Source: Candidatus Omnitrophota bacterium
GTDB taxonomy: Bacteria; Omnitrophota; Gorgyraeia; Zapsychrales; JANLHA01
Direction of reading: 5' to 3'
Assembly (NCBI GenBank): GCA_963662715.1
Contig: OY759724.1
Coordinates: forward strand, 1,170,001 to 1,202,000
Length of the DNA stretch: 32,000 nucleotides
The stretch's first letter is position 1. Each line of letters starts with the position of its first letter. Under the pieces are notes generated by a model that made no database searches, was not told the origin of the DNA, and saw nothing but the letters and a program-made list of their open reading frames with translations. The position numbers and the translations under genes are program-made. Positions 1 to 32,000 of the stretch are shown here, one piece after another.

Positions 1-3000
1 TTCTTACCAGCTCCCACAACTCCTCATCCGTGATCCCGCCCTCCGGCACATTCAACGCCTTGCGCCAGTACAACGCATTTGTTGGCTCATCATACAGGTA
101 ATCCACAACACTCCGACCTTCCGGCAGCACCAGCTGATGCGTCGGAATCCAGATATACCGACTCGCACTGCTCCGCTCATCAAACGTGAACCGCACCGAT
201 GACTGCAGCTGCAGCCCCAGCTCTTCCCTGCGGTCTTCTCCGAAACCTCTTTCTTTCAACCCGGCATCCGTATAGGTCTTCAGGCCCGGGAACGCGAACG
301 TCCAGCCCTTGTACCACCAATCCAGCGGCTTGACGTCCATCCCCAGGATATGCGGCATGATAAAATGCGTGAACTGATCGCCCGGCTGCCTGGCGATGAT
401 ATACGCCCCGAACTGGATCGGTTTGGCAAATCCTTTCACCTTGCGGCTGAACACCTCTTCGATCTCATTGAGCCGGTGCGGCCCGTTCCACGGCCGCGGC
501 GTTACCCCGCCCTCTTCGATCGGCGAAGAAGTTTCTTCCAACGGCCTTAAGTCTCTGATCAAATCAAATTCGGCTAAATACCGCAACTCCTGGTCAGTCA
601 AACGCTGTTGAGAAGAAGCGTTACGGACTTTACGAATCAAATCCTGCAGCTCAGGATTTTGCTCCCCGGTGAAAACATAAGGCACAAACCCGAAATGTTT
701 AATGTAGAACACAGCCGCCCCGGCTTGCAGGGCATCGTCAGCAAACTCTTTATGAGCTGTTTCTCCTCCGAATTGTGAATTTGAAATAACAACGCCCTCA
801 ACATCAGGATATAAAATCCGCACCGCATTCAATCTCTGTTCGAATATCTTCCTGGAGAAATAATGCCTGAACCTCGGGATGATCTTATATCCGATTGTGA
901 TCTTATCATCCAGCAATGAATGGAACGCTCCATGACCGATCATGAGCTGCTTCTCCAGCAAGAAACCTTCCGCGCAGTTCGTCAGATCATCAGTGAACCA
1001 CATGATCTGCTGAATGCCAAAATCATGAGTCGCCACACAGCACGTTCGGGTCCCTTTGGCGCTGAATCCTCCGATCCAGAATTTCTGGAGTTTGAAATAA
1101 TCTATGAACTGTTTCAGGTAGGCCTGTCTTTGCTGTTCGGAAGCAACCAAGCGAACGTTCGGGAGAGATAAGAATGCTTCTAAATCGGCTTTGACGACCT
1201 CCGGGCTCTTGTCGTCATTGACCGGGGAGCTGCTGACACTATCGTCACGGCGGGTCGCGTCTGCTGACTGATCTTTAATGATCCGGACAGTCTGGTCAAA
1301 AACAAGCTCATAGACCGGGTCAAAGCTGTGGTCCAGGTACCGGTTATAAACTGTGAGGACTTTTTCCCTCCGGGCAATTGTCACATACGCCTGAGCCGGC
1401 AAATAGCTTCTGACCAACAGCACTTTAACTGTCCATTGTTTAAGTTCTACCTGATGCTCCACCTGCGCCAGCCGCCAGTGTTTCAAATACTTCTCTGGGA
1501 AGACATCATAATATTTCTCATATCCTTCATTGAGGAAAGGCAAACACAATTGCGTCTCCCATCTTTCCAAATGCTTGCTGACCAAGCCCGTTTGCGCATC
1601 TCTGTGTCTGTACCAGCGGGCAAGCATCCTCGTCCATGTCAACAGGGTTTCCCAGAGCCGTGTGCCGATACGATTCCGGAAGACAATGATTTCATTTTGT
1701 CCGGCTTCTGGCGCGGAAGACCGGGCATGCATTTGGACTTTTACAGCCTGCTGCCGACCTATCGGGGAAGAAGTTTTATTCTGCTCTTTTCGGTCTTCAT
1801 CCGAACTCTTTAAAACTTGTTTCTGTGCCGCGTGATCATGCGTCGTCAAAAGCTTCTGTGAGTTGGGCCATAAGGCCATAAGACCCAGGATGCCGCCGAT
1901 GACGTAGGAAACAACATCCCATTTATCCGGAGTTGAAGTGATGCCCCACCACTCCAGGACGACAGAAAGAGCAACCATCCAGAAAAGCGTTGTCTTGGCA
2001 AGCCCGCTCTTTCTTTCCACAATTCTTCTTACAAGGACATCGGCATGGCTGGAAATGCGTGTCGTGACAAAACGTTTGAACCTGGCGGCGACAGTGTGCT
2101 CATCCAGCATGTTCGCGAAACTTCTCACTAACTTCAAGAGGATAGGTGTCAAGAGGACAAAAAGCGGAACGGAAACATAATCAGTGTAATGGTCGCGGAT
2201 CAACACGGCCAGCGGAGTCCCGACCTTGACGACTGTTTCCCGGAGAATATCATTATAAATATAACTCGAAAGCGAAAGCAGGGTTGATATAACAGCCGGT
2301 CTGTAATAAACAGATTCCTTAATAAATATTTTGTGTTTCAACCCATCCTCTACCGTCTTGGCGATATAGAACAGACTCATCGCGAAGATGACGCCGAATT
2401 CGCCCATCTGCAGCACAAATCCGGCCAGAAGCCCCATGATAAACAATCCTCTCGCCGGACTCACCGGGGTTTTAGGTTGAGACGAAGACTCCCCGGATTC
2501 CGGCTCTAACCTGTCTAAATAGATTATCGCCAGGGCGCCCCCGACAGCAATTATCATATAAATACCGAATAAGTAGAGAGCCTGGCCGAGATGAGATAAG
2601 ACCGGAGCAAGCGTCGGATTGATGAACGCAAAACTCGTTGCCACGAATCCCGGCATAAGCAGGCCCAGGACGGCGATAATAGAAAAGACCGTAATCTGCC
2701 GGATTTTCCGGAAAGGCTTCCTGGCGGCGGAAGCCGACGTTTCAGCAAAGGATATGCTTGCCACATCCTGCTGCTGAGCGATCCGCTGGAGAAGCTCAAC
2801 GTTAAGAATACGGTATTGTTCCTGAGAACTAAGAGCGAAGAAAGCCGGATGCAGGTAAATCGTCCTGCGCCCGACGTCAGTTCTTGCCGCATACAGCCCG
2901 TCGCCCAAAAGATCCGATCGCGCCGTTACAGTCAAGGAGAAGAAGCCGTAATCTTCAAAATCAGCCATGCCTGCGGTTTGATCCGGCGGGCCATGGGCGT

Positions 3001-6000
3001 CCTTGTGCAGTTTCACCAACGTTGCTTTTATCGTCTCAAGCCAATCTTTCCGGAAGCAGGAAGACACATCGTAAAGCTCCACCCCTTCAGGGTTCCAAAG
3101 GGCTTTGGCCTGACCGTCAGAATAATCTTCATGAGAAACCCTGCCGCCGGCAGATGCGCCTGAAACAGGTGAAGAAACATCATGGTCTTTCCCTTGCTGA
3201 TCGCCATCCCTCAGAAGCTGGGCGCGCCAGTAATGCAGGCCCATATCCCGTAACGATGTCCTCTGACGCGTTTCGTGATCAAGCACCGCTCTTAAAATAT
3301 CCTTCGGTGTCTTTTGAGGTTTTAGATAGAGAGCATTCAAATCATCCTTCTGCCCCATCTCAATGACGAGTTTATACGGACGTGTCTTCACTTCATACGG
3401 CAGCAGCAGATTCATTTCATCCACGTTGCGGGAAACATCCTTGGAATCATCGTACACATTCAGATCCGGTTGAATACGGACGAATCTCATTTTGACCAGC
3501 ACACCTTGTTTTTCCGCTTCATCCAGAACGCCCTGAACCAGCAGGAAGGCTTCTGTTTCCCTCCTCAAGGCATCGTACATATCTTCTCCCTCCTGCACTT
3601 TCATGCGGGTATCGGCAAAAGCGATAAACACAACGGCATTTGGGGCGAGTACAGACGGCAAATAATTAATATATTGCTGCACGGCTTCCTTAAATGATTT
3701 CTCTTTCAGGAAGAACGGTTTAATAAGCGTGACAAGCTGGGCCCGGAAGCCTTTCCCGATCATTTCACTCAAATCATCTTTCAGCAGAATATTAACCGGA
3801 GCCTCAGCATCCAATGTCTCGGCAGATACATGGACGCCTAACCGCTGCAGCTCATCCCGGTGATGTTCGGGGACAACATCTTCTTTATACCATTCCTGAG
3901 CTAATTCCGTGCCGATGACCGTCGAGCGCGCACGGACGTCCATTCTTTGCAGGGCCCTTCTCACCCGGAGCGGAACAGTGCCGTAACCGGTTCCGATATC
4001 GAGCGCGGTAAAACCACGCTCTGTTTCCGAACGGCCGTAAGCCTTTTTCATCACGGCATCGAAATACGTATCTTCACTCAAAACCGGAACCGCGGCATAG
4101 GCCTGCCGCTCCAGATGCCGCACAAAAACATACGGAAGCTCAAGCAGCTGGTTCATCTGCTGCAGTCCCACAAACGCTTTCCGTCTGTTTGAACTCTTAA
4201 CTTTATTGAAAAGATATTTGAGGATGGCTCCACGGACAAAGATGTAAATAACCGCAAACATGCCGCCCGTGCTTAAGACTTCACCGAACAATGTCCATGC
4301 GGGGATAGAGCTGACAAACTCGGCCAACACCGCGCCCAGCTGGTCAAAACTGAGATGAACAAAACCAGGGTAAGTCAGCCCCGTGAAAATAAACGCGGCA
4401 ATGCCTCCCAGCACCATGACCCCGAAAGCGGAGTCACGGCGGTCAAACCCCTGGAGCTGCAGAGCGATATAACCGGCTGACGCCGCAACCGACAGGCTTA
4501 CTTTGATCAATAAAGCTTTATAAGCCGACACCATGGACATCAAGGCTGTCACGAGCGGACTGAGCCATGCCCCGTGCACCAGCCAAATGTTCAGGAAGAC
4601 CCCGCCTATAATCAACCCTGCCAAAAGGAGTATAAACGGTTTCGACCATGACGTACGGAAAGATTTCACAGCAGCGGTTAAGCGGCCGTTAGCGTTAACC
4701 AGGATATGGGAAAGGATAAATGTGCCGGCGAAAAGAACACCTACAGCAGCCGGGGTCGACGGCAGAATAACGCTGCCCAATATCAGGAGCGCAAACGACA
4801 AGAATGTTATCCGTTTATTTGCAGGAGCAAAGGCCTCCCGGCCATGGAAAAGATGCCATAAAAGCTGCAGACTGAGCGACACCCCGATGAACGGCGGAGC
4901 CACGGCCAACGGGATACCAAAAGCCCAGCTTAATATCACACTGCCGCCAACCACAAATAATCCCGTTTCAATAACGGCCGGAGCCAGGACATAACCGACG
5001 AATCTCCCCCAGTGGGCTGTGATGCGTTTGTACACCCGTTCCAGCCTCGGCCAGCGGCCGCCGGTCATAGGAGAACTGCTTGCCGGCCCGTCCGTACCGG
5101 AATCGGAATCTTTTTGCAGTTGTCTTTGAGCCAGCACCATCTCTCTCGTATAAAGTTCTTTAATAACGGCGCTGTAATAATGTTTCAAGAATTGCGGAAC
5201 GTCTGTCAGATAAATAAAATTCGTTGTTTTCGTGACATAAGCCAGAATATTCTCTTCGCTCTTGGAGAACCGCGGCGGCGTCAGATTGTCCAAGCGGTCA
5301 AAGATTTTGATAATTTGTGCTATTTGGTTTTCTACCCTGTGCCCGCGGATGATTCTGCTCAAGAAGTCTTCGTCATCCTCATGAGATCTCTGTGTCAGGA
5401 TAAGAACGGTCCGGGTAATCATCCGCACGGTCTCTCGGTCTGCAAAGGCTCTCAGCCGCTTCTGTGTATCGGAAAGAAGGCGCAAAACATTGCCGCCGGC
5501 GTCTGCGTGTTCTTCAACAACATCATGCAGGAGAGTGGCCGCGATAATCACTTCAGCCGGAACACGGTTCTGCAACAAATATCTGAACAACTTCCTGTTT
5601 TGTGAAATAGCCAAGGCAATGCGGATCGGATGGGTCAAGTACGGCTCCCCGCGTTCACGCTGCATACCGTGATGGACAACATAAGCAATCCGGTAAACTT
5701 CATCAAGCAGGGCGGCATTAAACGAAATATCATACCGGTTAAGATTCTGTTTAATATCAGAGAACGTCATATCGAACCACATACGGCTGTATTCCACATT
5801 AGAATATTCGTACAGGTGAATGTTGACCGAGGGGATGCCCTGCTCCATAAACGGCGTCGTGCTGCGGAACAAGGATTCCATTTCCGGGAAGAACCGGAAC
5901 CATTTCCCGGCGGTGGTTAACAATAAAGCGCCGTCCCGCATCCAGTTAAGCATATTATTGGCAATAATGGCGGTCTGAATGGGCTTGGCCACTTCTTGCT

Positions 6001-9000
6001 GAGCTTCAATTAAATATTCATAATAGTTATAAAGGAGCAGATCAAATTTTTCACCTTGTTCCGGAGCAAAACTCTTGAAATCAGCCGGCCTGATCTTGAT
6101 AAGCTGTCTGATATTATCTCGCGCCTGAACGGTCCGGTAATTGACCGCATGGAAATATTTATTAAGCAATCTCCGGCTTTCCGAGATCATTCGTCTCGGG
6201 GTATCGAAAGTCAAGAAGACATGCCGCGGATAAAATCCCCGTTGCGCTATGTTCAACATCTCCGCATTATCGTTGACCACGGTAATTTCAAAATTATGCG
6301 GTGTCAACTGAATACCTCTAGCTTCCGCTTCTTCCATAAAGGCAATCGCAATACGATGCGCTTCCGCAACCATCGGTCGTCCGGACAGACTTCTGATACC
6401 GCCGAAACTCAGGATCCTGATCTTATCGCCCAACTCTCCCCTCTCAAACCGGTCCATAATGCGCGGAGCGAGTTTTGTCTGCAGCATTCCGAAGACCGCC
6501 CGGCTTTCACCCATGCCGTTAAATAAATAATAAGGATAATGATCCCTCTTCCTGATATTCCTGCGGACCGGCGAAGACGACTGTTCTTTGCGTGAGGCGG
6601 CCCCGCGCTGGATTGAGACCACTTGCCCTTGCGCATTCCTTTCATAAACTCTGCTGCCGTACCGGCGGTACTGAGGTGCGGGGAAGTGACGGCGCAGCAG
6701 CCGGAACTCTTCGAATTGATGCACAATACTGTTAAGGTGGAAATATCGTCCCCGCAAAGTCACCGGAGGAATATTCTCGTCCGCTGCTCTTAAAATAAAT
6801 TCATCTTTGCGCGTCCGCTCTATCGTCAGAATGACCTTCCGGGTTATCGGGGACAGGAAGACGATTGTCTCCAGCCTGCCGACGGCTTCCCTCATAACGT
6901 ATCCAACCCGCCGCTCAATGATCAGGTCGCTGGCCTTGGATACCGCAAAATATGTCTTGCCAAAACTGACGCTCCGTTTCTTACCGCCTATTTCTCCCTC
7001 TCTTCTGGTCCGTTGAATATTTGTTTCAAACTGTCTGAACGGTTTATATTCCCGCAGGTTAACGGCCTGGCGTTTTCCATTTTTATGGGTTTTCACTTTA
7101 ACCGCCGTCTGCCCCTGATACGAGACATAAATACCGTCTTTTTCCGCACGCAGGATAAGATAATTATTTTCATCCTGGACATCAATCAAGGCCAACTCAC
7201 CGGCCCGGTCATTGCGGTGGACGACAACCTGGCTTGGTTGTGACACATAAACCTCGGGCAATTGTAAAAGATGTCCGGACAGGTTGACACGCTTGCCGGT
7301 CAGCTCTCTTTTCTCGTCCGGATCTCTGAGGATATTCCTGTTCCTTTCCATCTGCCGGTCAAACTGTCTGAACGACTCATAATCCTGCAGATGTATCACT
7401 TTCCCTGATTGAGTATCGTGTGCGCTTAACACGGCTTCCTGATTTTGATACACTAAGGTGACTGTCCCGCCTTCTGCGACAAATAATAGATTATGATCTG
7501 TTTGTTTCTTATCAGCCAGCACCATCCTCGGAGTTTTCTTATGCCTGTAGACAGTCACCTTAGCGAACTTGCCTGCTTTGGGCCGGTAACTTCTTGGGAG
7601 ATTCAACTGATAACCGGCAAAATACAGCCGCAGATCAGCAATATCTCTCGCTGTCCCGCGCCGCCGGACGTCTGCGATGTAACGCTTGGCCTGAGACGAA
7701 GTGACCGGGCTGGAAACATCTTTATCGTGTTTTTCCGGCTCTGAGGCTTTTGTTCCTTGAACATCAGACTGTTCAGCCGCAAAATTTTCCTCTTCTGCCA
7801 AACGCCGGGCTCTTCGTATGATGATGCGCCGTAAAATGAGGATTCCCGCCGCAGCGGCAGCCGTGGCCGCGGAGAAGAGCCCAACGAAAACAACCGGCGA
7901 AATTCCCGGGCCTTCAGCCAAAGTCGCTTCTTTCTTCTTCATCCGTAATAAAGCTCTCCGGTTTTTACGATTTTCTCTCTCTCCTATTTCACGTTTAGCG
8001 ATTTCTTTTTCTGTCTCAACCTGCAGTTCCTTTCGCTCCCTGGCTTCCAGACGCTGGACAAAAGACTCGAGGAACCGGCTTATAGGAGCGTCAACTTCAT
8101 AGCCTCGCTCAAGGAATCTTTCCGGCAAATTCTGATGGAAGGCTCCCATTAAAACAATGGCCCGGGAGTTCGGCACAGATTTCAGGTAGGCTCCAACTTC
8201 TTTGACGATTTTCCCTTCTCTTAATTCTCTCTGTTTAATACGGGTCTTAACCGGAATTTGTCTCGTTGGGTCGCGGTTCAATTCCAGGAAGACCTCTGCA
8301 AAAGGCGGAACTTCCAGCCGCAGCTCTACTCTTCCTATATTCCTGGGATCAACCATTTTTTCAGCCATATAGCCCAGAAGCGTTTCCTGGAATGTAATAT
8401 CTGCCCGGTCTTTGTTCTCCTGCCAGTTTTGCCATTCCGCCCGCCAATCTTTCTCTTTTAATTCCGCAGCTTTTACTCTGGCATAACGCTTATACTCCGC
8501 CTCAAACGCTTTCCGGTATTTTCTGTCCTTGAGAATTCTCGGCACATCCCAGCCCGGGAAAACCTCTCTTAGCCCTATCCATGGATTAAAACGATTAAAG
8601 ATAACATCTTCCATGTATACAAGCACTTTCTGGGACCGTGTCTCTTCAAAAGCCCGATCCATATTCTCCCTTAAGGATTCGAACAACCTCATATTAATTT
8701 CCCGGTCTTCGAAGAATTTAAAACTGTGCAGCATATAAATGATGTAGATATCCGGGACCATGGCGGCGGCAAATTCTCTCTTTTCGATAAATTGTGTGTC
8801 CCTGGAGCTTATTAATAACGCCCCCAGCCCAGCGGAGAATCCGAACCTGAAGAAATAACGTCTGGACATCTCTGCCTTCCGCGGCATATCGAGAATGGCA
8901 GAGAAGGCGCTTCTCTGCTCCGTTGTTCGAGTTTCTTTCTCTTCTTTCACCGGACTGGATGAAGATGACGGACGGGCCTGTTCCGGCCAGATCGGCTGGT

Positions 9001-24000: not shown

Positions 24001-27000
24001 GCAGTTGATCAAACTTCTCTATGACAGCCGTGACAATCTCGTCGCGCACCGGGCCAAACGCCATCACTCTGCTTCGGATATTCTTGCGGATTTGTCCCTT
24101 CGTCGGCCCGAACAGGCTCAGCTGATCTTCATCCTCTTCACCCTTCGCTATCGGGCTGGAGGAACCTGAAGAAGCTTTCTGCTGCTTAATATTCTCTTTT
24201 AAGAATTCTCTTATAATTCGTCGTGTTTGCTCATAAAAGACGACATTGGCGTGCGGATTCTCTCCTTCTTTAGGTAATATGATATATTCCTCTGGATTAC
24301 CCAATCCCCGTTTAAAGCCCTCAATAAATTCTTTTAAGGCGCGACCGGGTTCCTTATTTTCCAAGTCCGGAGAATGTATATCCTCTTCGACCATAATAGT
24401 CATCTTAGGACCTAAATAATCTCTCAAGGCATCAACTGTCTTCTCGCTGTATAAGTCTCGCATCAATTCCCCGTAAGGATTGTTATCCTTCATTAAGGCA
24501 TACCGGCCGCCGGAAAAGATATTACTGAAGAATGGATAGAACGGTAATAAATCAAAGCCCCTCTGTCGGCCGGCCAGTTCGGATCCAGCCAACGGCGTAG
24601 CAATCTCGAGGAAAGAGACGCCTTTGAACAAAGAGTGTCCTCTGTCTTTGTCGGTCTTAGCCGCCAACCTGAAGATAGTCCCGCCATTGGAATGCGTGAC
24701 AACTCCCCCAAGGCGGGCCGCAGGATTTCTTAACTGAAATTCCGTCCATTTTTCCGATAATTTTTGCATATTTTCTTTTACCGGCAGGAAGTAATCATAA
24801 AGGAAGAAGGCAATATTATATTTTCTTCTGAGCTCTTTGAAAGAAAGGGCAAAGGTATTAAACGCGCCCCGGCCATTGCCGTGGATAAAGAGGATCACCG
24901 GCCTGTTATCCACGGTTTCAAGGGTGTGGATATCGGACAGCCCTTCCAAAATACGCATAATTTCCTGTGATCTCGCATCATTCTTAGGCAATGTTTCTTT
25001 TAAAATCCGGGCAATATGGCCAATGACAATATCTTTACGTTCTGAAATTTCTATGTTTATTTGATTTAAGGCATCCTCGAAACCGGAACCCGATGTCGCC
25101 TTGTTGCTATCTTTAATCGCTTTTTCTAATGCGTTCATAAGCGGTGCAATAATTCCTTCGAACCCGATTTTAATTTGGCCATTTTCTGATAACGCTTCGC
25201 CTTCTTCCTTTAATAAACCTTCATTCTTTACAAGTGTTGCGAATGCTTTCTCTGGATTCCGGGCTAATGCCATCATCGTTGCCAACGCAATGATGAATTC
25301 CCGGCGAGTTATAGTTACCGGGGAGGAACTGGAAATATCTTTTCCGACCCCGGTCTCCACCTCTTCCTTCATCATATGGACAGTTCTTTGATTCTCTCCT
25401 CTGCGCTTAGAGCTTGATGCCGGTTTCCTGGCGATGACATATTCATGCTTATCGCTACGAAACGCCACTTCTTCATCCTTAAAACCCTTCTGTTTCATGA
25501 CAGTAACGAGCTTAGCGCCCATCAACCCGGGCGCTTGTCCTTTCAAGAAATCAGTAGTTGCTTTAACTATAATTATTCCATCAGCCTGCAGCACGAAATA
25601 AGATTGCTCAATAATTTTCTCTAAAACATCAACAAAGAAGAATGGATTAATCAACTCACCCTCTCCAGCGGTGGCTAAAGCCTCACCGTATCTACTGATT
25701 CGTGCGTCCCTAAGGACATATAACAGACTGTCATTATGGACAACGACTCCCAGGGTTCCTCCGTTAAATTCAGCTGACAAATCTGTCGCGTCGCCATAGA
25801 CTTGCGTGAGCACTGCCTTCTCCTCTATGTCGACTTTCTTTTGTCGTGCAACATCCAACATGAACATCCTCTTAAGACCACCGTCTATTAAGCCTTGGGA
25901 AGGATTACGATTTGACGATGCGGCAACATCGATGCCTATCCGGCCTCCTAAATGATATCTATGCGCAAGTTTTTCATATATTGTGCGTTCCTCATTAACA
26001 ACTATCTGAACCGGGGAACTGGCCGGGTCATCATCAATTTCAGGACGATCCATCCTTGAATGCACTCTGAATGCCGTCAGCATCGCTTCCGCCTGTTCCA
26101 GCGTCGCTGCGCCGAACCGGATCGCATTGATGCCGGCCATGCCGATCTTTTCGTTTTCTAAGAGTCCGAAGAACACATCCTGGACCTCTGGAGTCATTCG
26201 GCGGGTTGCTCTGCTTAAGACATACTTCACTAACCTGCGGACGCTTTCTTCTGCCTGTTCATATCCGGTCTCCCTGGCATATCCTATCAGGAAGTCGCCC
26301 ACATAATACTGATACCGGCGGTACTGCTGGAACACCACCACGTTCACCAGCGCCTTTAACGCCAGCTCAAGAGCTCCCTTCTGCTTGCTGAAATCGTTCT
26401 CCCTAAGGAACCCGGTCACCTCTTTTATCAACTCTTCCGCTTCACTTGACCGTTCAACCTGTTGGCGGCCATACGCGCTCTCCATCCGGTATCCTTTCGA
26501 TACAAACCGATCGGCCGGAGTGAACAGGTCCATCTCAGATTCCAGGGCCGCGTCCACCCGGACCACTCTCATATCCACCCTGCCTGACTTGAACACCCGC
26601 ACATCCACGACCATCCGGGACCGGTCTTCCGTGTCGATCCGCAATCTCTTCGCCTTCGGGGCATTATGGTAAATCGCCCACACCCGTACGGCCTTCATCG
26701 CGTCAAAATCATCCTGCGGATATCTGTTCTTCAGCCAGCCCCTCATATCCTCCGTGCGGTCTAACGTCATCTCATAACCCTGCATCCAGACAGTATCAAT
26801 ATCTGCCATACGAAGGTCTTTGCCCAGCCGTGCTTTATAAGCCGCCTGCAGTTGATCAAACTTCTCTATGACAGCCGTGACAATCTCGTCACGCACCGGA
26901 CCAAACGCCATCACTCTGCTTCGGATATCCTTGCGGATTTGTCCCTTCGTCGGCCCGAACAGGCTCAGCTGATCTTCATCTTCTTCGCCCTTCGCTATCG

Positions 27001-30000
27001 GTGAGGATGTCTGATCCTTAGACGCCTCCGCCCCCAGAGAGCGGACGGCCTCTTTCACATCCAACGTCATATCACTTCCGGCCAGATCGCGGATATCGGC
27101 TGCGCTTAATGTCTCACCCTGAATAATCCTTGACCGGTAGAGTGTCATCCAGCGGCGATGAACGGTCTTATCATTAAATGTAAAACCGAACTTCAGGTAG
27201 AAAACCACGGCACCTGAATCTAATGCATAGTCATTATCAATCTGTGACCGCATCAGATGAACCTGCTTCACGTCAAAATGACTGTGGATGCTCTTAATCA
27301 GGGCAGCAAACATGTCTTTGCTCTTTTGGCCTTCATGCCGGAATTCATCAAACAAGCGGTAGACAAGATGAGCGCCGTTTCTGTCCGTGATGACCGTGCC
27401 GTAGGCCAGGACCTGATCTTTTTCAACAACAGCAAGATAATAACCGCTGTCAATCCCCAAACGAGCCAGGAAGACAACCCGCACCCCATCCATAATTGGG
27501 CCGGCATAAACCTCATATTCATTCACATCGTCTGCCTGTCCTCCGCCGATCCAGACATCTTTTGCTTCAAAGGCTTCCTGCAGCCAGGCGGCATATAAAT
27601 GAGCTTCCTGCAATGTTGCTCTAAAAAGTCGTGTGGTTTCGGTCAGCTGTCTTACTTGCGGATAAAGGAGGTGTCCCGCACGAACCGGGGAACTGGACGG
27701 CGTTCTGCCGGATTCGGAATCCGGAGTCTTCATCGGAATAATAATGTCAAACCGGGCTCCCAGGATCTTCCCTGTCTGGCCTTTAATGTTCCGTGCTGTA
27801 ATCGTGCCGTCAAAACATTCCTCAATGATCTTACGGCTCAGGTATAAGCCTAACCCGTGGGCTTCGTCTTCTGCGAAACGCCGGCTGAACCATTCCTTGA
27901 AAATCAGGTTGATCAGGTCTTCTTCGCCGGCGAACGTGGCCCTTGCCTTGTTCCAGACATTCAGTTCAACGGCCTTGCTTCTGAGAATATCCGGCTGGAA
28001 TCCCTGTCCGTTATCCCTGAAGCTGATTTTTAAATAACCGTCTTCATAGCCCATGTCCATTTTCAGCCGGACTTTTAAGAAACCGATCCCGGCATGACTG
28101 TAAGCATTGCTGATCAAATTCTTCAGCACATAGAAGAGCCCGTCCTTATAAACCGGCATAAACACCTGCGGCGTCCCGGGATGAATGACCACCTCGATAC
28201 CTCCGGTCCGCATCCAGGTCCGCCCATGGAAATCATCCAATGCCAATGTCTCCAAAAGAATACCGTTACGGACGATATCGATTCTCCTGGCGAATTCTTC
28301 AATGCTTCGAGCAAAATTCTTCTTAACCAACGCCCATGTGTCCTGATGGTCCGCTATCTCTGCGAGGTTGATGCCCTGTTGCTTTCTGTAATCCTCAATT
28401 AAGTACTCCAACCCTTCACACATTTTCTGGATACTTTTAGCTTTTATCTCTGCCTGCGGTTTTTTCAGCAAGGCCGAGAAAGCCGCAAAAATAGCGTCAA
28501 TTCTCCTGTACAGGTCCAGATAGATCCTGACCAGGGCGAGGTTGTCCTCTTGTCCTTCATAATACATATCCAGAACCTGCAGGTTGCCTAATACGGCAAA
28601 CAGCAATGAACGTAAGTCATGCGTCAAGATGCCGAAGGACAGTAAAGCTCTTTGCTGAATATTAATACCCAATGACTGTCCGGTACGGACGGCCCGTTCT
28701 ATCTGATCTTTCTTAAACAGCAATTTATAATGATCCGGCTGATCTCTTCTCAGGACCCCTCTTCTGACCAGAAGATCGAGGGCCATGTTCAGAGCTCGGG
28801 TGCTCTTGATATCCAAGAGGCCCGGGGCTCCCTGAGTTGCGGCCAAATAGATAACCGGCGTCAGCTGACCATCCTGGGCAAAGGCGTAAAGTCCGCGTGT
28901 TTCCAGAATAGTTCTTAACACTTCTTCCTCGGCATGATCTTTCCAGGCTTCCACCGGAGAACTGGCCTTTTGAACCGTTAAGACTTCGGCGTTTAATTTC
29001 GTTGAAATGTTCATGGAAGCAGAAAATCCTAGGCTTTCCAGAGCAGGAATCGCCTCTCTTGAATTCTGATAATTGTGAATCACGACGGCATCCCGATTTA
29101 AGACCGGGTTAAGGCTCTTCATGTGTTCAAGATATTCCGCCTGCTTAAGATGTTTAAGGCCCATGAAGCTCACGATGAAATCAATCTGTTCCGGAGCGAA
29201 GTAATAAGGCAAGTTTTCTGCGACATCCAGAATAAACGTAATCGACGGGTGGAGGTTCTGCCACTTGACGGCCTGGCATTCATCCCCAAAGCCGAACAAT
29301 TGAATCCTCCCGAGATCTCCTTCTTCAAGCGTTCCCTGCCTGACCTGTTCTTCCAAATCTTTGGCTATTGTGTTTACGGCCACGCCTTCCCCTGTTCCCC
29401 AGCAAACATAAGTGACCTTTCTGTCCGGCACGGCGCTTCTCTTCACCCTGCGGACCCTCTCAACGATCATCCGTACGATATCGATACCAAATTCTCTGTT
29501 GATATCCACCAGCCTTGTGTCCGTAAATATCGACCTTCTGACTTCGGTAAAGCCGTCAAGCAGACCGGTCTGGCTGTTCAAATAAACACGGCCGTTATAG
29601 AAATAATCAATGTCTTTAATCTTATCAACAGGAAGCGTGGTCAGCAGTCTCGGTCCGGCCGGGAAGAAAGTTTCTTTGATCGACATCTCTTCTGATACGG
29701 ATCTGATAACACTGCCCGGCGCCATTTTGCGTATCGGGGAGGAACTGGTCTTGGGGCCGGATGACTCTGTCGTTGTTGGGCGCTCTTTGTTTTGCGATGT
29801 TCCGGCCCGTCCGCCGATATACTGGCCGATAATCGCTAAAGATTTCTCTATTTGCCCCCGGCCCCGTTCGACAACCTCATAAGCTCTTTGTCCTAACGCA
29901 TCCGCCAGATCATCATTTTCAAATACCCGGATCAGTTCACGCCCTAACTCCGAGGTTTTCTTCAATTGAATGATCGCATCGTGAGAGATAAAATCTCCCA

Positions 30001-32000
30001 TCATATCTTCAAAGTTTTCTGTATATGGACCGACAATGACAGGTTTGGCAAAATTGGCAGGTTCCAGAGGATTGTGTCCGCCTAACGTATACCAGAAACT
30101 TCCGGCAACAACGACGACACTGGCAATGGAATAGAGGGATTTTAATTCACCATACGTATCCAGCATAATCACCTGAGGAGGTCCGCGAGGATCTATGGAA
30201 CTCAAAGCAGATTTGCGTATCGCCGGAATACCCTGCAACTCCAAATACCGCATAAATCCGTCAACATCAGCAAGATTGCGCGGAGCAAATATCAGTTTCA
30301 CATTTTCCAATCCCGGACGGATAATCAATTCTTTATAGGCCTTGACCAATTCAACTTCTTCACGTTCATGAACACTTCCGTAAACAAGAATCTTATCTGT
30401 TCGGTTTAATCCCAAATGTTTTAATAACTCTGTTCTTTCATCTTCCGATAAAGTAATCAGGGATGTGTCATATTTAATATTTCCAATAATGGAAATCCTG
30501 TCGTCTCCGACCCCTCTCTGCTGCAGGAATTCTCTTGCAAGTTCAGAAACGGCACCGAAATGATCCGTCAATTCCACGAGTTTACGGCCGTAGAACCGAT
30601 ATTTTACCCGAAGGACTTCACCAAGAGACTGGTCGTCCGACAAGAAAGAGTTGATCACGACCGTAGCCGCCCCATATTTTTCTTTGGCAATTCTAACGAA
30701 TTTAGGCCCTAACCCTATAAACGATTCCTGGACGACGACATGAACCGGCCTGATAACTCTGAACAGCCGATTAACAGCGGACTTCATATCAAAGACATAC
30801 GGAAGAACAACGATATCCTTATCAGCTAAACTCGCCATGTCTTTGACATTTTGGGTGCTGTTTGTCAGCAGGACAATACGATAATCCGGATAAGTCTGCT
30901 GCAGAGCTTCTATCAGGGATATGGAATTAATAACTTCCCCGACACCGCAGGCGGAGACCACGATGGATTTCCTGTCGTCTTTGAATGTGGCCTTAATGTC
31001 TCGCGGGATATACCCAAAGCCTGCCGGAATATCGCTCCAGTGACGATGCTGCTTGATAAGATGTCGCACAAAATTCATGCTGTACAACGGGGCAAAAAGC
31101 AGGTCTTTAACGAAGAAGGTCAGCCTTGAGTCTCTTTCAAGCCATTTGGAACCCGTAACCGATACAATAACAGCCGCACATGCACTTCTGCCGGATTTCT
31201 TAATCATCTTGTAGGAATGATACATTCCCAAACGCAGGAGGGCATAGAAAGATTTTCTTTCTTGTCCGTTATCCTTCCCCTGCTTGACCGGGCTGGAAAC
31301 CTTGTTTTCCGGAGACTTAACGCGATAGTTGTACATTTCCGGAACATCATCCTGATCAATCCTTTCAAAAGAGTATCCTTCAGCCAGCATGGAGCCCAAC
31401 AAGACACCTTGTTCACCCCGGTCTTCCAGTAATTCGTTTTCAACGTAAAAGGTCACCTCTCCGTCTATGGAGAAATTGAGATAGATATTACCGAACGCTC
31501 TGTTAACATTGCCGTACGCATCCCACATCGGCAATGTCTCGATATCAAATTTCCGGCGAATAGTGTCCGCCTGCCCTTTGGTCCACTCGACAGCCCATTC
31601 CCAGACATTCTCATCCGGGATGCCGGTCTCTTCCTGGACAGCCTTCCAAATCCTGGACTGCAAGTCGTTAATAAGCGTGACGGTCTCCATTCCGTCATAA
31701 ACGTAGCGGATCACCAGATCTTTGTTCTGTAAGGTCCGGATGACATTGACGAACTCTTCCTGATACTTGGCCGTGACACGGGCTATCCTTTGCCGGCCGG
31801 CTTCTCTGTCAATATCCGCTTCGGACGAATACACCGCTTTGAAGGCATCATGATGCCAAACATGGAAACTCAGGTTGACCTGCAAATCAAACGGCAGGGT
31901 CGCCAGCCGTTCGGCCGCCTGCTGGGCCCGGCGGTCGTTCACCCTCCAGCCGTGTGTCACCAGCCAGACATCAAAGCCCCGTTTATGAATGGCATCCACG
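1..32000 (-). CDS. Internal fragment of one giant ORF (10,666 complete codons, plus-strand 31999 down to 2; start and stop both outside the window) encoding a modular multi-enzyme, membrane-spanning megaprotein
   Basis: I checked the whole frame whose codons occupy plus-strand positions 3k+2..3k+4: positions 29,700 down to 1 were translated 60-nt line by line, and 32,000-29,700 was translated in bulk plus scanned codon by codon. No TAA/TAG/TGA occurs anywhere (no tta/cta/tca at those plus positions). The product is protein-like throughout and carries many canonical enzyme motifs (listed below). None of the 16 minus-strand ORFs in the supplied track is in this frame (their low coordinates are 1 or 0 mod 3), which is consistent with this frame never closing inside the window. 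Random expectation for 10,666 stop-free codons is about (61/64)^10666, effectively zero. Confidence 0.95.
14..498 (-). repeat. Dispersed direct repeat, copy 1 (partner 19670-20154); the module continues beyond the window edge
   Basis: Same alignment as above. Preceded by ETSSPIEEGGVTPRPWNGPH (SSPI at 518-529), parallel to GSSPLEERETSPRPWNGPH in copy 2. Confidence 0.9.
530..1219 (-). other. Uncharacterised module (230 aa)
   Basis: NDDKSPEVVKADLEAFLSLPNVRLVASEQQRQAYLKQFIDYFKLQKFWIGGFSAKGTRTCCVATHDFGIQQIMWFTDDLTNCAEGFLLEKQLMIGHGAFHSLLDD... lies between SSPV (1220) and SSPI (518). Confidence 0.4.
1232..1759 (-). other. Uncharacterised module (176 aa)
   Basis: GRQQAVKVQMHARSSAPEAGQNEIIVFRNRIGTRLWETLLTWTRMLARWYRHRDAQTGLVSKHLERWETQLCLPFLNEGYEKYYDVFPEKYLKHWRLAQ... 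lies between SSPI (1760) and SSPV (1220). Confidence 0.4.
1865..2695 (-). other. Second polytopic membrane block (about 6 predicted TM helices) in module 1772-3163, after a soluble N-terminal region of about 150 aa
   Basis: ITVFSIIAVLGLLMPGFVATSFAF, ALYLFGIYMIIAVGGALAIIYL, GLFIMGLLAGFVLQMGEFGVIFAMSLFYI, VSVPLFVLLTPILLKLV, TLFWMVALSVVLEWWGI, VVSYVIGGILGLMALWP. Confidence 0.65.
3176..4150 (-). other. Class I SAM-dependent methyltransferase-like domain fused C-terminally to the membrane block (same module, 3176-5065)
   Basis: Motif I is GFTALDIGTGYGTVPLRV (about 3975-4015), followed by VIGTELAQEW and NAVVFIAFAD. Confidence 0.5.
4208..5002 (-). other. Polytopic membrane block (about 8 predicted TM helices)
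   Basis: Successive hydrophobic stretches of about 20 aa: FVGYVLAPAVIETGLFVVGGSVILSWAF, IPLAVAPPFIGVSLSLQLLW, ITFLSFALLILGSVILP, AAVGVLFAGTFILSHILV, PFILLLAGLIIGGVFLNIWLV, LSPLVTALMSMVSAYKALLI, FGVMVLGGIAAFIFTGL, GGMFAVIYIFVRGAILKYLF. Confidence 0.7.
5078..6565 (-). other. Two-domain module: N-terminal Rossmann/CheR-like methyltransferase-like region (weak) plus C-terminal RelA/SpoT-type HD ((p)ppGpp hydrolase-like) domain
   Basis: HD part at 5282-5674: VVHHGMQRERGEPYLTHPIRIALAI, AATLLHDVVEEHAD and IIKIFDRLDNL match the SpoT/Mesh1 hydrolase motifs (H-x-G-x-x-R-x-x-G-x-P-Y-x-x-H-P, LLHD-x-x-E-D, DRL-x-N). No synthetase domain follows. The N-terminal part (IRILSFGG... VVNDNAEMLNIAQRGFYPRHV) is only loosely CheR-like. 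Confidence 0.65.
6578..7702 (-). other. Module (375 aa) containing two tandem domains of about 110 aa with a shared Y-x-x-F-R-Q-F-[DE] ending
   Basis: ...GKVIHLQDYESFRQFDRQ (YESFRQF = 7361-7381) and ...RQAVNLREYKPFRQFETN (YKPFRQF = 7028-7048) lie 333 nt apart. Each is preceded by beta-strand-like alternating sequence. Confidence 0.45.
7832..7903 (-). other. Single predicted transmembrane helix followed by a strongly basic stop-transfer cluster
   Basis: ISPVVFVGLFSAATAAAAAGILIL is followed by RRIIIRRARR (down to about 7800). It lies at the C-terminal end of module 7715-8947. Confidence 0.6.
8804..8869 (-). other. Twin-arginine (Tat) signal-peptide-like segment located internally, about 25 aa after an SSPV junction
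   Basis: M-SRRYFFR-FGFSAGLGALLISS. S-R-R-x-F-F-R fits the Tat consensus [ST]-R-R-x-F-L-K and is followed by an uncharged h-region of about 13 residues (Met codon 8867-8869). Confidence 0.45.
8960..10969 (-). other. Large uncharacterised module (670 aa)
   Basis: There is a Rossmann-like stretch (GKPVIATIGYSRAAVWQLQKML ... VDCVIVHVHTFETWSPESFAALLRDRLAEEDSILILSH), then long helical/coiled segments and an acidic Pro/Glu-rich stretch (PETTEVVPTVEPAQMPEQDREGQPED). No family recognised. Confidence 0.4.
10982..11698 (-). other. Uncharacterised module (239 aa)
   Basis: SEEDNVRGLISDAELFVRAAVPGTIEQVEGKYLRVIKAGADMIIFPTRKDIIHGTWLRDRQIGIGAVNLGRPV... lies between SSPV (11699) and SSPV (10970). No motif recognised. 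Confidence 0.4.
11711..13354 (-). other. Heptosyltransferase-like (GT9, GT-B fold) module
   Basis: N-terminal VKRVLILSPTKRDYGVELIESGVMNILAVHPNIEEVTVVTHPN. C-terminal signature LEGLNKLINSADVVVTPDTYTMHAATAMGKIVVTPWG (12323-12415), which matches the ADP-heptose:LPS heptosyltransferase motif L-I-x-x-A-D-L-V-V-T-x-D-[ST]-G-x-M-H-L-A-A-A-x-G as I recall it. Confidence 0.55.
13910..14476 (-). other. Uncharacterised module (189 aa) with an LYHGT motif (possible ADP-ribosyltransferase/Tpt1-like fold, very tentative)
   Basis: VSEEKDLVLYHGTLAGLVRTWLAGDG (LYHGT = 14438-14452). The H-G-T is reminiscent of H-Y-E class ART/KptA enzymes. No further motif verified. Confidence 0.2.
14573..17326 (-). other. 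Large module (918 aa) with a GT-A-fold glycosyltransferase core (GT2/GT81-like) and a helical C-terminal extension of about 450 aa
   Basis: DLDVVVTVPFYSEGDTIDNVLEAI (Asp 16841-16843). VRGKGFSLHLGLGVMEDLGRKNGLFATYDADLRSIQPGWVRDHLWPL with a DxD motif (D-A-D = 15977-15985). This resembles glucosyl-3-phosphoglycerate-synthase-type GT-A enzymes from memory. Confidence 0.5.
17339..18175 (-). other. HD-domain metal-dependent phosphohydrolase module
   Basis: SLQIAAMGHDIERYL (H...HD), SHPLNSARIVDKLLEQLG, AFLIRHHDAGVH and LRVLSDADSAAFF (distal Asp), in the order typical of the HD superfamily. Confidence 0.6.
18458..18994 (-). other. Uncharacterised module (179 aa)
   Basis: ERRIRKADVLQELVAEKAIRTAKDLAYYGDAIGLSAKAQSIIAAYIRLKKEGINVTVPRLAQLSALTVAEVSEVSEG... 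lies between SSPV (18995) and SSPI (18446). Apparently helical. No motif recognised. Confidence 0.4.
19007..20173 (-). other. Uncharacterised module of about 389 aa; its N-terminal part of about 165 aa is duplicated at the start of the window
   Basis: EERETSPRPWNGPHRLNEIEEVFSRKVKGFAKSIQFGAYIIAKKKGDQFTHFIMPHILGMDVKPLDWWYKGWTFAFPGLKTYTDAGLKERGFGEERREELGLQLQSSVRFTFDERSSASRYIWIPTHQLVLPEGRSVVDYLYDEPTNALYWRKALNVPEGGITDEELW... No family recognised. Confidence 0.5.
19670..20154 (-). repeat. Dispersed direct repeat, copy 2 (partner 14-498)
   Basis: About 485 nt aligns with 14-498 at a constant offset of 19,656 nt (6,552 codons, in frame). I counted roughly 15 mismatches by eye, clustered around 20026-20046, for about 97 percent identity. 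The + strand track ORFs 350-550 and 20006-20257 begin with the same MRHDKMREL... shadow. Confidence 0.9.
20186..20419 (-). other. Low-complexity basic/acidic linker segment (78 aa)
   Basis: KKVERKVEPIHPIVKSENNRRPQQDQKSSRKKTKAGSEEKLTDTVTISEEARRLLEKEEGQTSAESQGQIERGSEESG lies between SSPV (20420) and SSPL (20174). Confidence 0.6.
20432..20920 (-). repeat. In-frame tandem repeat, 96-bp (32-aa) unit, 5 copies decaying toward the C-terminal side
   Basis: Unit is SSPVGASTMMSSTPLTQEEYTAWKQAQAAEEV. SSPV blocks at 20813, 20717 and 20621 are 96 nt apart. The first copy starts with degenerate QLPV (20909-20920). The last two copies are 33 and 34 aa and diverged (SSNV at 20522-20533). Confidence 0.9.
21311..21865 (-). 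other. Uncharacterised module (185 aa)
   Basis: EAKWDTEILMDQLRTVDSLSEVLPVAWGEQITAEDIIRVYKEIKGTEIENTLIVRLLWHIVNATVGVG... lies between SSPI (21866) and SSPV (21299). No motif recognised. Confidence 0.4.
21915..22480 (-). repeat. In-frame tandem repeat, 213-bp (71-aa) unit, about 2.65 copies
   Basis: Unit is SSPVAGAGTNNERVKGQGTYTVAAVLLKGETGDAVAAGRSSGVREERSELSERIAGNRTKTTDLLSEAGEV. SSPV blocks at 22451, 22238 and 22025 are exactly 213 nt apart. The two full copies differ at about 3 nt. The + strand track ORFs 22005-22193 and 22218-22406 are near-identical shadows. Confidence 0.9.
22463..23170 (-). other. GHKL/HATPase_c-like ATP-binding module (anti-sigma-factor/serine-kinase-like, tentative)
   Basis: FRYINQNIAQHGSGFG (N-box-like), IHVIVLDQGKGFIN (D-x-G-x-G) and GGNFGHGLTLTVENAENISIET (G-box-like). 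No H-box precedes it. Confidence 0.4.
23183..24148 (-). repeat. Copy B of the duplicated module of about 322 aa, function unknown (paralogue of 26021-26995)
   Basis: Starts AKGEEDEDQLSLFGPTKGQIRKNIRSRVMAFGPVRDEIVTAVIEKFDQLQAAYKARLGKDLRMA and ends HSRMDLPEGPS-SSPI. Offset to copy A is 2,847 nt (949 codons, in frame). Confidence 0.85.
24161..25315 (-). other. Alpha/beta-hydrolase (serine hydrolase) module
   Basis: RPVILFIHGNGRGAFN (oxyanion HG region, His 24881-24883) and the nucleophile elbow GGVVTHSNGGTIF (Ser codon 24689-24691). A later EGENPHANVFYE could supply the catalytic His. Confidence 0.6.
25328..26008 (-). other. Class I methyltransferase-like module (tentative)
   Basis: RIGIDVAASSNRNPSQGLIDGGLKRMFMLDVARQ, VYGDATDLSAEFNGGTLGVVVHNDSLLYV and SYFVLQADGIIIVKA resemble Rossmann-type methyltransferase motifs I, II and post-II. 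About 227 aa. Confidence 0.35.
26021..26995 (-). repeat. Copy A of a duplicated module of about 325 aa, function unknown (paralogue of 23183-24148)
   Basis: Starts AKGEEDEDQLSLFGPTKGQIRKDIRSRVMAFGPVRDEIVTAVIEKFDQLQAAYKARLGKDLRMA and ends HSRMDRPEIDDDPA-SSPV. By-eye protein identity to copy B is roughly 75-80 percent. The + strand track ORFs 26385-26672 and 23538-23825 are near-identical antisense shadows of the two copies. Confidence 0.85.
27008..27682 (-). other. GNAT-like N-acetyltransferase module (tentative)
   Basis: About 225 aa. YLAVVEKDQVLAYGTVITDRNGAHLVYRLFDEFRHEGQKSKDMFAALIKSI ... GAVVFYLKFGFTF resembles the GNAT core and its C-terminal FY-x-K-x-GF motif. Match is from memory only. 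Confidence 0.4.
27695..28951 (-). other. Histidine kinase module (HisKA H-box plus HATPase_c) with a soluble N-terminal region of about 100 aa; no transmembrane sensor and no receiver domain
   Basis: H-box FGILTHDLRSLLFAVLGNL (His codon 28619-28621). N-box GLFYVLKNLISNAYSH. D-box KISFRDNGQGFQPD. G-box EAHGLGLYLSRKIIEECFDGTITARN. All in canonical order. Confidence 0.85.
28964..29731 (-). other. Class I SAM-dependent methyltransferase-like module
   Basis: VTYVCWGTGEGVAVNTIAKDL (glycine-rich motif I-like), then ITFILDVAENLPYYFAPEQIDFIVSFMGLKHL and LNRDAVVIHNY. About 256 aa between two SSP motifs. Confidence 0.45.
29744..31285 (-). other. Kdo transferase-like module (3-deoxy-D-manno-octulosonic acid transferase, GT30, WaaA/KdtA-like)
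   Basis: Contains KSIVVSACGVGEVINSISLIEALQQTYPDYRIVLL (SACGV at about 30941-30958), ILVYGSVHEREEVELVKAY, KLIFAPRNLADVDGF, VIMLDTYGELKSLYSIASVVVVAGSF and GGHNPLEPANFAKPVIVGPYTENFEDM (GGHNPLE = 30062-30082). Order and spacing match the GT30 family as I remember it. Bounded by SSPV (31286) and SSPI (29732). Confidence 0.8.
31298..32000 (-). other. Module truncated by the window edge, function unknown
   Basis: Translation begins VDAIHKRGFDVWLVTHGWRVNDRRAQQAAERLATLPFDLQVNLSFHVWHHDAF and ends at ENKV-SSPV (31286-31297). I recognise no family motif. Confidence 0.4.

Follow-up and report, generated by a model that had tools for sequence, protein, structure and literature searches.

Here we report that a short peptide motif, [S/V/A/T]-S-S-P-[V/I/L/M], delimits the protein-sized modules of giant multi-enzyme proteins that have relatives in Omnitrophota. 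The motif recurs throughout one such protein, encoded by an open reading frame (ORF) that fills a 32,000-nucleotide stretch of Candidatus Omnitrophota contig OY759724.1 (hereafter the window). It is specific to this lineage, is kept by strong purifying selection at the level of the peptide, and bounds the units in which these proteins have been duplicated and shuffled. As for function, we tentatively propose that the motif may be read by a dedicated endopeptidase.

A strict tetrapeptide in a giant reading frame

The ORF is read on the minus strand, where residue i starts at window base 31999-3(i-1), and is interrupted by no stop, compared with 260-612 stops in each of the other five frames. 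It has the traits of the giant-protein class: more than 10,000 codons in a single ORF (10,666 here), divergent enzyme domains that tile the chain along with large unannotated stretches (WaaA, histidine kinase, two HD hydrolases and GT9, the rest being matchless), several predicted transmembrane helices, and homology to proteins encoded in Omnitrophota genomes. The membrane segments come from a crude Kyte-Doolittle scan rather than a topology predictor; it gave 18 hydropathy peaks, in rows that partly overlap and are clustered in modules m33, m36 and m37.

An initial annotation, made from the sequence alone, had reported 40 copies of SSP[VILM] in these 10,666 residues, between positions 518 and 31297, and had estimated that fewer than one would arise by chance. 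We recovered exactly this count and these positions (first copy at 31286-31297, last at 518-529). The real amino-acid composition predicts 0.38 copies; the rough residue frequencies used earlier were imprecise, but the conclusion stands. The shuffled and off-frame controls proposed at the time agree with it: 2,000 residue shuffles gave a mean of 0.35 and a maximum of 4 copies, and the other five frames contain 1, 1, 1, 3 and 6. SSP is the most over-represented tripeptide of the ORF (40 versus 1.5 expected).

The motif tolerates very little variation. In all 40 SSP tripeptides of the window the next residue is V (25 copies), I (10), L (4) or M (1), and the residue before them (position -1) is S (17), V (12), T (5), A (3), G (2) or P (1). 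The ORF contains not one near-variant of the type TSP, ASP, SAP, GSP or SGP plus V, I, L or M. STP[VILM], the sole Ser-to-Thr near-variant, occurs three times, always as STPL and within one tandem repeat. Across the 96 distinct contexts available from the window and its relatives, the three positions S, S and P are invariant, and position -1 is acidic (D or E) in none and basic (K or R) in one. A generic Ser/Pro-rich (PT- or ST-rich) compositional linker was rejected in view of this invariance and the lack of near-variants.

At the nucleotide level, the serine codons of the motif mix TCN and AGY (six serine codons are in use), conservation is limited to the bases forced by the amino acids, and the flanking nucleotides are uninformative. 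A search of Rfam returned no family match, and no repeat or RNA family was found. The mixture of codons, together with the lack of near-variants, shows that it is the peptide that is under selection, as the initial annotation had argued from its mixture of AGY and UCN codons. A DNA or RNA repeat element is ruled out by the same codon mixture, the uninformative flanks and the lack of an Rfam match.

A related proposal is that the motif is a DNA-level recombination scar, a 12-nucleotide microhomology used for module shuffling of which the peptide is a by-product. Duplication breakpoints do coincide with the motif, and a pyrimidine is the last base of the first motif serine codon in 37 of the 40 window copies and in 36 of 36 copies in relatives (L001, L002, L004 and L008). 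However, the codons switch between TCN and AGY, only forced bases are conserved, the flanks carry no nucleotide signal, synonymous variants are frequent while non-synonymous ones are absent, and no repeat or RNA family matches. We consider such a scar highly improbable, and largely excluded by the codon data. The preference at the first serine codon, where TCA and TCG are avoided, amounts to an enrichment of TCY (p = 9e-7 in the window, 0.003 in relatives); usage at the second serine codon is no different from background.

Two further candidate roles were rejected. A start-codon or internal-initiation function of the fourth residue is incompatible with the codons common there (GTC, GTT, GTA and ATA) and with the lack of a purine-rich signal upstream. 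A signal peptidase I site would fit [S/V/A/T]-S-S at -3/-1, but Pro always comes next and no hydrophobic core precedes it. Pro at +1 blocks signal peptidase I.

Modules, duplications and relatives

The motif divides the ORF into 41 segments (m00 to m40; Table 1). Spacing between motifs ranges from 11 to 922 residues, rather than the 24 to about 918 reported earlier, and the median of the 39 complete intervals is 231. The suggestion that this spacing resembles natural protein sizes holds for the protein-sized modules, but not for 11 intervals shorter than 90 residues, nor for motif doublets that lie 9-37 residues apart inside linkers. As had been claimed, no detected catalytic domain is interrupted: each Pfam or NCBIfam match in the window lies within one interval, and none spans a motif. 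For example, the NF004388 alignment is wholly inside m01 (residues 235-752). Modules correspond to whole proteins, as the WaaA profile is nearly complete in m01, and stand-alone HD proteins and P0078 (see below) span single modules.

Duplications within the ORF follow the same boundaries. The paralogues m05/m08 and m21/m40 align from the first residue of a motif to the next motif, and the sequences outside are unrelated. Between m05 and m08 the second motif serine codon differs (TCA versus AGC), and the linkers upstream share no similarity. In both tandem arrays the repeat units begin with the motif, as was noted at the outset (20559-20914 and 21917-22481). The 32-residue unit (window 20489-20914, residues 3696-3837) has two motif positions (SSPV...S-STPL or SSPL), three copies having STPL. 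A homologous unit of the form VGASTVMS-SSPV-S.EEY is kept in P0051, P0151 and L008.

Relatives were found only through an exhaustive HMMER search, which with residues 3939-4887 as query returned 149 matches. Megablast against phage and plasmid collections showed no similarity, viral, genome and metagenome collections held no match to residues 235-1993, and a metagenome scan with the m21 alignment gave no match. Word-seeded protein searches with m25 (922 amino acids, aa) and m04-m09 (1,744 aa), 2,666 residues in all, identified no homologue among 5.8 billion clusters.

Motif counts in the long or fragmentary HMMER matches are far above expectation: 16 in P0051 (4,597 aa), 14 in P0152 (4,966 aa), 13 in the open frame of L004 (3,779 aa), 7 each in P0016 (1,885 aa) and P0153 (1,641 aa), and 5 each in P0001 (1,090 aa) and P0070 (538 aa). 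The 59 distinct SSP contexts of the relatives continue without exception with V (35), I (20) or L (4). The remaining 142 matches, mostly short HD-domain proteins, contain 7 SSP[VILM] among 17 SSP in 40,963 residues. Most motif-bearing relatives are named Candidatus Omnitrophota bacterium by NCBI (P0051, P0001, P0016, P0153, P0151 and P0150).

Homologous modules keep their end motifs despite different neighbours. The match of m00 to the L004 ORF (61% identity) ends exactly at a motif, m23 coincides with motifs at both ends in P0004 and P0001, m14, m09, m06 and m24 match P0051, and m21 matches P0001, P0002, L004 and P0070. Positional conservation in homologous giants, which the initial annotation had proposed as a check, is borne out: 16 of 27 predicted module ends fall at most 10 residues from a motif in the subject (per-end chance 0.075; binomial probability 5e-12). 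The domain matches of the relatives (TPR, NUDIX, PRPP synthetase, LOG, methyltransferases, GGDEF and GT5) are also each confined to a single interval. One m21-family gene (P0078, L010 405-1667, 420 aa) is called as a stand-alone, motif-free gene that ends where the giants have the motif. These comparisons show that the motif is kept at homologous junctions in distant relatives and is lacking from stand-alone versions of the modules.

Several relatives have features of their own. L004 (CAZAXH010000027.1) is titled 'uncultured Planctomycetales bacterium', and its m21-like module is 95% identical to proteins labelled Candidatus Omnitrophota; the Planctomycetales label is likely imprecise. L004 also contains a run of 100 N at 1030-1129. 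In L008, a JGI contig, a single in-frame TAG directly before SSPV (19242-19256) breaks the giant frame and the homologous repeat unit continues after it. This TAG could be a sequencing error, a pseudogene or a case of read-through. L009 (ENA ERZ1286166 contig_299) is a noisy long-read contig, where frameshifts disrupt the genes for ribosomal protein S2, EF-Ts and gyrB. After gyrB comes an m21-like fragment that has SSPI close to its start and may be near the 5' end of a giant gene. P0131 (L005 2396-6370) is a complete protein of 1,324 aa in an ordinary gene neighbourhood, beside aconitase and radical-SAM genes. Because it shares m23-like and m06-like modules with the window and has one SSP motif, such modules also exist in ordinary-sized, unpunctuated proteins.

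The m21 family has no Pfam or PDB match. Its invariant HxH...(S/T)PxD resembles a metal site, and an upstream Glu present in P0001, P0002, P0050, P0070 and P0078 is Gln in both window copies (m21 and m40). Assignment as a JAMM-like metalloprotease is not supported, as a PDB profile search gave only spurious chromodomain matches (E ~0.1) and Gln replaces Glu in the window copies. An AlphaFold model of m21 built from 6 sequences was unusable (predicted local distance difference test, pLDDT, 38.7).

Cysteine is strongly depleted in the ORF, with 13 in 10,666 residues (0.12%) and none between residues 1436 and 7202. The content of the giant relatives is 0-0.6%, except for the 166-aa fragment P0004 (2 Cys), and that of the other 142 HMMER matches, mostly short HD-domain proteins, is 0.9%. 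No Walker-A P-loop, HExxH or GDSGG occurs anywhere in the 10,666 residues, despite the presence of several enzyme-like modules. On the plus strand, GC skew is negative across the whole window (cumulative -2.33), the minus coding strand being G-rich, and nine ORFs (153-197 aa) are all antisense to the giant ORF and probably spurious.

Table 1. Giant ORF, modules, tandem arrays and motif copies in the window. Positions are window nucleotides.
Feature	Position	Strand	Remarks
Internal segment of giant ORF	2..31999	-	10,666 codons, 0 stops, open at both ends; 41 motif-delimited segments, m00-m40
m00	31298..31999	-	residues 1-234, cut by window edge; 61% identical to L004 ORF residues 2187-2420, SSPV directly after
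m01, full-length Kdo transferase (WaaA-like)	29744..31297	-	NCBIfam NF004388 positions 14-421 of 425 at residues 302-728
m03, histidine-kinase-like	27695..28963	-	HATPase_c at residues 1286-1423, ending 12 residues before next motif
m05	26021..27007	-	81% identity to m08; match opens at first residue and stops no more than 6 residues short of next motif
m08	23183..24160	-	paralogue of m05
m21, invariant HxH...(S/T)PxD family	19007..20185	-	homologues in Omnitrophota fragments; P0078 stand-alone
m23, 90-residue helical module	18188..18457	-	63-64% identity to P0004 and P0001; all three flanked by the motif on both sides
m24, HD-superfamily phosphohydrolase	17339..18187	-	motif-free stand-alone homologues (268-355 aa) cover whole module
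m30	11711..13366	-	GT9 (heptosyltransferase-like) match
m35	5078..6577	-	SpoT/RelA-type HD hydrolase match
m36 + m37, polytopic membrane modules	1772..5077	-	11 and 4 hydropathy-peak rows; m36 rows overlap, ~8 distinct segments
m40, second m21-family copy	2..529	-	93% identical to m21 over 176 residues; cut by window edge
Tandem array, 96 nucleotides (32 aa) x 3.7	20559..20914	-	each unit starts with SSPV
Tandem array, 213 nucleotides (71 aa) x 2.7	21917..22481	-	each unit starts with SSPV
SSPV residue 235	31286..31297	-	start of m01
SSPI residue 753	29732..29743	-	
SSPV residue 1013	28952..28963	-	
SSPV residue 1436	27683..27694	-	
SSPI residue 1665	26996..27007	-	start of duplicated module m05
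SSPV residue 1994	26009..26020	-	
SSPV residue 2225	25316..25327	-	
SSPI residue 2614	24149..24160	-	start of m08, paralogue of m05
SSPI residue 2940	23171..23182	-	
SSPV residue 3180	22451..22462	-	71-aa repeat unit 1
SSPV residue 3251	22238..22249	-	71-aa repeat unit 2
SSPV residue 3322	22025..22036	-	71-aa repeat partial unit 3
SSPI residue 3375	21866..21877	-	
SSPV residue 3564	21299..21310	-	m14; start aligns exactly with motif at P0051 residue 4181
SSPV residue 3726	20813..20824	-	32-aa repeat
SSPV residue 3758	20717..20728	-	32-aa repeat
SSPV residue 3790	20621..20632	-	first of doublet, next motif 11 residues on
SSPL residue 3801	20588..20599	-	
SSPL residue 3834	20489..20500	-	
SSPV residue 3857	20420..20431	-	
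SSPL residue 3939	20174..20185	-	start of m21
SSPV residue 4332	18995..19006	-	end of m21; conserved in P0001, P0002, L004, P0070
SSPI residue 4515	18446..18457	-	start of m23; exact match in P0004 and P0001; predicted helix from its Pro
SSPV residue 4605	18176..18187	-	start of HD module m24; predicted helix from its Pro, low-confidence 10-residue block
SSPI residue 4888	17327..17338	-	end of m24; matches motif at P0051 residue 267
SSPL residue 5810	14561..14572	-	first of doublet, 28 residues apart
SSPI residue 5838	14477..14488	-	
SSPV residue 6031	13898..13909	-	first of doublet, 37 residues apart
SSPV residue 6068	13787..13798	-	
SSPV residue 6212	13355..13366	-	
SSPV residue 6764	11699..11710	-	
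SSPV residue 7007	10970..10981	-	
SSPV residue 7681	8948..8959	-	
SSPV residue 8096	7703..7714	-	
SSPV residue 8475	6566..6577	-	
SSPM residue 8975	5066..5077	-	
SSPV residue 9609	3164..3175	-	
SSPI residue 10077	1760..1771	-	
SSPV residue 10257	1220..1231	-	
SSPI residue 10491	518..529	-	start of m40, paralogue of m21

Linker setting and possible roles of the motif

The description of the motif flanks as polar and linker-like holds up well. The region from -15 to +19 is disorder-prone (TOP-IDP z = 7.4, a value reached by 0 of 5,000 random position sets) and forms a hydropathy trough, with S, E, Q and T enriched and F, I, L, Y and C depleted. The arrangement expected of a polyprotein, a conserved short site at module junctions in an accessible linker, is therefore found here.

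Among the possible roles we favour, tentatively, that of a recognition site for proteolytic processing by a dedicated endopeptidase. Such an enzyme would recognise SSP[VILM] and would be encoded outside the window, for example as one of the subtilisin-like S8 domains that giants are reported to carry near their N-termini. By cutting the giant precursor it would release the individual working proteins, much as viral polyproteins or MARTX toxins are matured. The classic P4-P1 substrates of subtilisin- and elastase-type serine proteases are AAPV, AAPL and AAPM; because small-small-Pro-aliphatic resembles these, the cut may be placed after the aliphatic residue. Processing is favoured because the invariance of the motif exceeds what a capping box or a flexible linker needs, because the modules correspond to complete stand-alone proteins that include enzymes and polytopic membrane proteins awkward to keep tethered, and because S8 and C39 peptidase domains have been reported in such giants. 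The excess of the motif over expectation, its peptide-level selection, its setting in linkers, its retention at homologous junctions with shuffled neighbours and the published proposal that such giants are cleaved count in the same direction. Since the doublets 9-37 residues apart are too short to hold folded modules, redundant recognition sites account for them better than a structural cap would. Also counted for processing is the depletion of Cys, which is shared by giant toxins that are exported or processed, RTX and MARTX among them.

Several observations weigh against this interpretation. Pfam, NCBIfam, PHROGs and PDB sequence searches revealed no protease domain, either in the window (10,666 residues) or in the relatives (~20,000 residues). 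If every site were cut, some of the products would be peptides of 11-37 residues without obvious use, and homologous modules in P0016 (m22-like) and P0131 lack flanking motifs. The remaining objections are structural. In an AlphaFold model of residues 4500-4920, built on a 48-sequence alignment (mean pLDDT 85.5), m23 forms a small bundle of helices and m24 adopts an HD fold, for which the best PDB matches are YpgQ-like HD hydrolases, with weak E-values. Confidence falls to ~60 in the 10-residue blocks that hold motifs 4515 and 4605. At these two of the three modelled junctions, the helix of the next module begins exactly at the motif Pro (Pro4517 and Pro4607); the third motif (4888) comes directly after the last confident helix. 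In addition, 55 of the 96 contexts have E, D, Q, S or T at position +4 (57%, compared with a background of 28%; p = 4e-9), and acidic residues occur at +6 and +7. Helix starts at Pro together with the preference at +4 fit an N-capping box, and a structural role could explain part of the pattern.

In form, the motif resembles a helix N-cap that opens a module. It may be an uncleaved structural junction: an SSP-aliphatic N-capping box, Pro being at N1, where the linker gives way to the first helix of the module, so that adjacent modules would fold independently within a chain that stays whole. The modelled helix starts, the dip in confidence and the residues favoured at +4, +6 and +7 all speak for this. 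Duplication units also begin with the motif, so that it belongs to the downstream module. In helix N-capping boxes, S/T-x-x-E is combined with Pro at N1; they are degenerate and not confined to module starts. The predicted helices from the motif Pro and the enrichment of E, S, T, Q and D at +4 resemble such boxes, whereas SSP[VILM] is invariant and lineage-specific. Capping boxes normally accept any of S, T, D and N at the cap, and N1 and N2 can be occupied by many residues, but here 96 of 96 contexts are invariant at three positions and T is excluded. Moreover, the motif is kept in doublets 9-15 residues apart without a following folded module, stand-alone homologues fold without it, and the downstream side shows no significant gain in helix propensity over the upstream side (p = 0.18). 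On balance, we regard an uncleaved structural junction as somewhat unlikely, although its capping-box features carry real weight.

Modification of an invariant serine is another option. A dedicated enzyme that reads S-S-P-aliphatic could O-glycosylate or phosphorylate one of the two and so mark or stiffen the junction, for example for protease protection or surface display. The two invariant serines, the exclusion of Thr, the exposed Ser/Thr/Glu-rich linkers and the many glycosyltransferase modules of the same proteins are consistent with this, and doublets are compatible with multi-site modification. However, no known bacterial sequon fits: that of Bacteroidota, D-(S/T)-(A/I/L/V/M/T), needs Asp, and position -1 is acidic in 0 of 96 contexts. 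The glycosyltransferases identified are of the lipid/lipopolysaccharide type (GT30 and GT9) or GT5 starch synthase, not protein O-glycosyltransferases, and modification alone leaves the restriction of the motif to module starts unexplained. We consider this role unlikely.

Also conceivable is a handle for a translocation, insertion or assembly machine, with the motif bound by a SecA-like motor domain or a chaperone that handles the chain module by module. A strict short motif that recurs regularly in exposed linkers would suit this purpose, polytopic membrane modules lie between soluble enzyme modules, and SecA-like domains are reported to be common in Omnitrophota giants. Yet neither the window nor the relatives examined yielded a SecA-like or chaperone domain, and no Sec or chaperone signal is known to resemble SSP-aliphatic. 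Such a handle seems decidedly improbable.

Returning to proteolytic processing, N-terminal C39 or S8 peptidase and SecA-like domains have been reported for Omnitrophota giants. None of the three was identified inside the window, and the ends of the ORF lie beyond it. More tentatively still, Omnitrophota may pack enzymes and membrane proteins, in sets as large as an operon, into single giant ORFs whose products are matured by cleavage at S-S-P-[V/I/L/M], the site and its protease forming a lineage-specific pair. If true, this would be a virus-like polyprotein strategy in a cellular organism, at a scale of 10,000-100,000 residues, and the motif would be a ready-made parser that splits each giant into its real protein products. 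Confirmed cleavage would represent cellular polyprotein maturation on an unprecedented scale.

Significance and comparison with known systems

Giant multi-enzyme proteins of Omnitrophota have been described as the 'Archaeovorin' type (West-Roberts et al., bioRxiv 10.1101/2023.11.21.568195) and as the 'multi-enzyme metabolic cluster' class (Nielsen & Lui, bioRxiv 10.64898/2026.06.07.730766). That they are cleaved after translation is a published hypothesis. Their genes reach ~147,000 codons and are among the largest known. The authors of the earlier study state that, with no information on the cleavage points, they could not analyse the giants module by module (10.1101/2023.11.21.568195). The opinion of the initial annotation that no bacterial system is comparable was thus too broad with regard to the proteins and their possible cleavage, but holds for the signal: neither paper contains a junction or cleavage motif or a linker signal (10.1101/2023.11.21.568195; 10.64898/2026.06.07.730766), and no paper in the searchable literature pairs SSPV or SSPI with Omnitrophota. 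The gene class is known and the punctuation motif appears to be new. The protein in the window resembles these giants in its ORF of more than 10,000 codons, its mosaic of divergent glycosyltransferase, methyltransferase, NUDIX, kinase and HD modules, its many predicted transmembrane helices, its few database matches, and in having Omnitrophota-labelled fragments as closest relatives.

The motif is the first concrete candidate for the points at which these giants are divided or cut. It offers an objective way to divide them into modules for structure prediction and annotation, and whether they work as one chain or in pieces becomes testable at one defined tetrapeptide.

Outside Omnitrophota, polyvalent proteins of phages and conjugative elements are also multi-enzyme mosaics; Iyer and colleagues reportedly proposed in 2017 that they are processed by peptidases. 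The window protein shares the mosaic character, but has no similarity to phage and plasmid collections and a different domain repertoire. To our knowledge, no conserved junction tetrapeptide has been described for polyvalent proteins.

In mechanism, the nearest analogues would be viral polyproteins and MARTX toxins, a comparison that depends on the processing proposed here. In viral polyproteins (picornavirus 3C and flavivirus NS3 being familiar proteases), as in the window, one ORF encodes many complete proteins with a short conserved peptide at the junctions. The window, in contrast, belongs to a cellular genome, its ORF is more than ten times longer, and the site sequence is different. MARTX toxins use an internal cysteine protease domain that cleaves after Leu at loosely defined sites, few per toxin. 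Like the window protein, they are large, Cys-poor bacterial proteins composed of shuffled modules, joined by unstructured linkers with short sites (processing sites in MARTX). They differ from it in that the window protein has 40 or more strict tetrapeptides, yielded no protease in the searches, and consists of modules that look like housekeeping-type enzymes rather than toxins.

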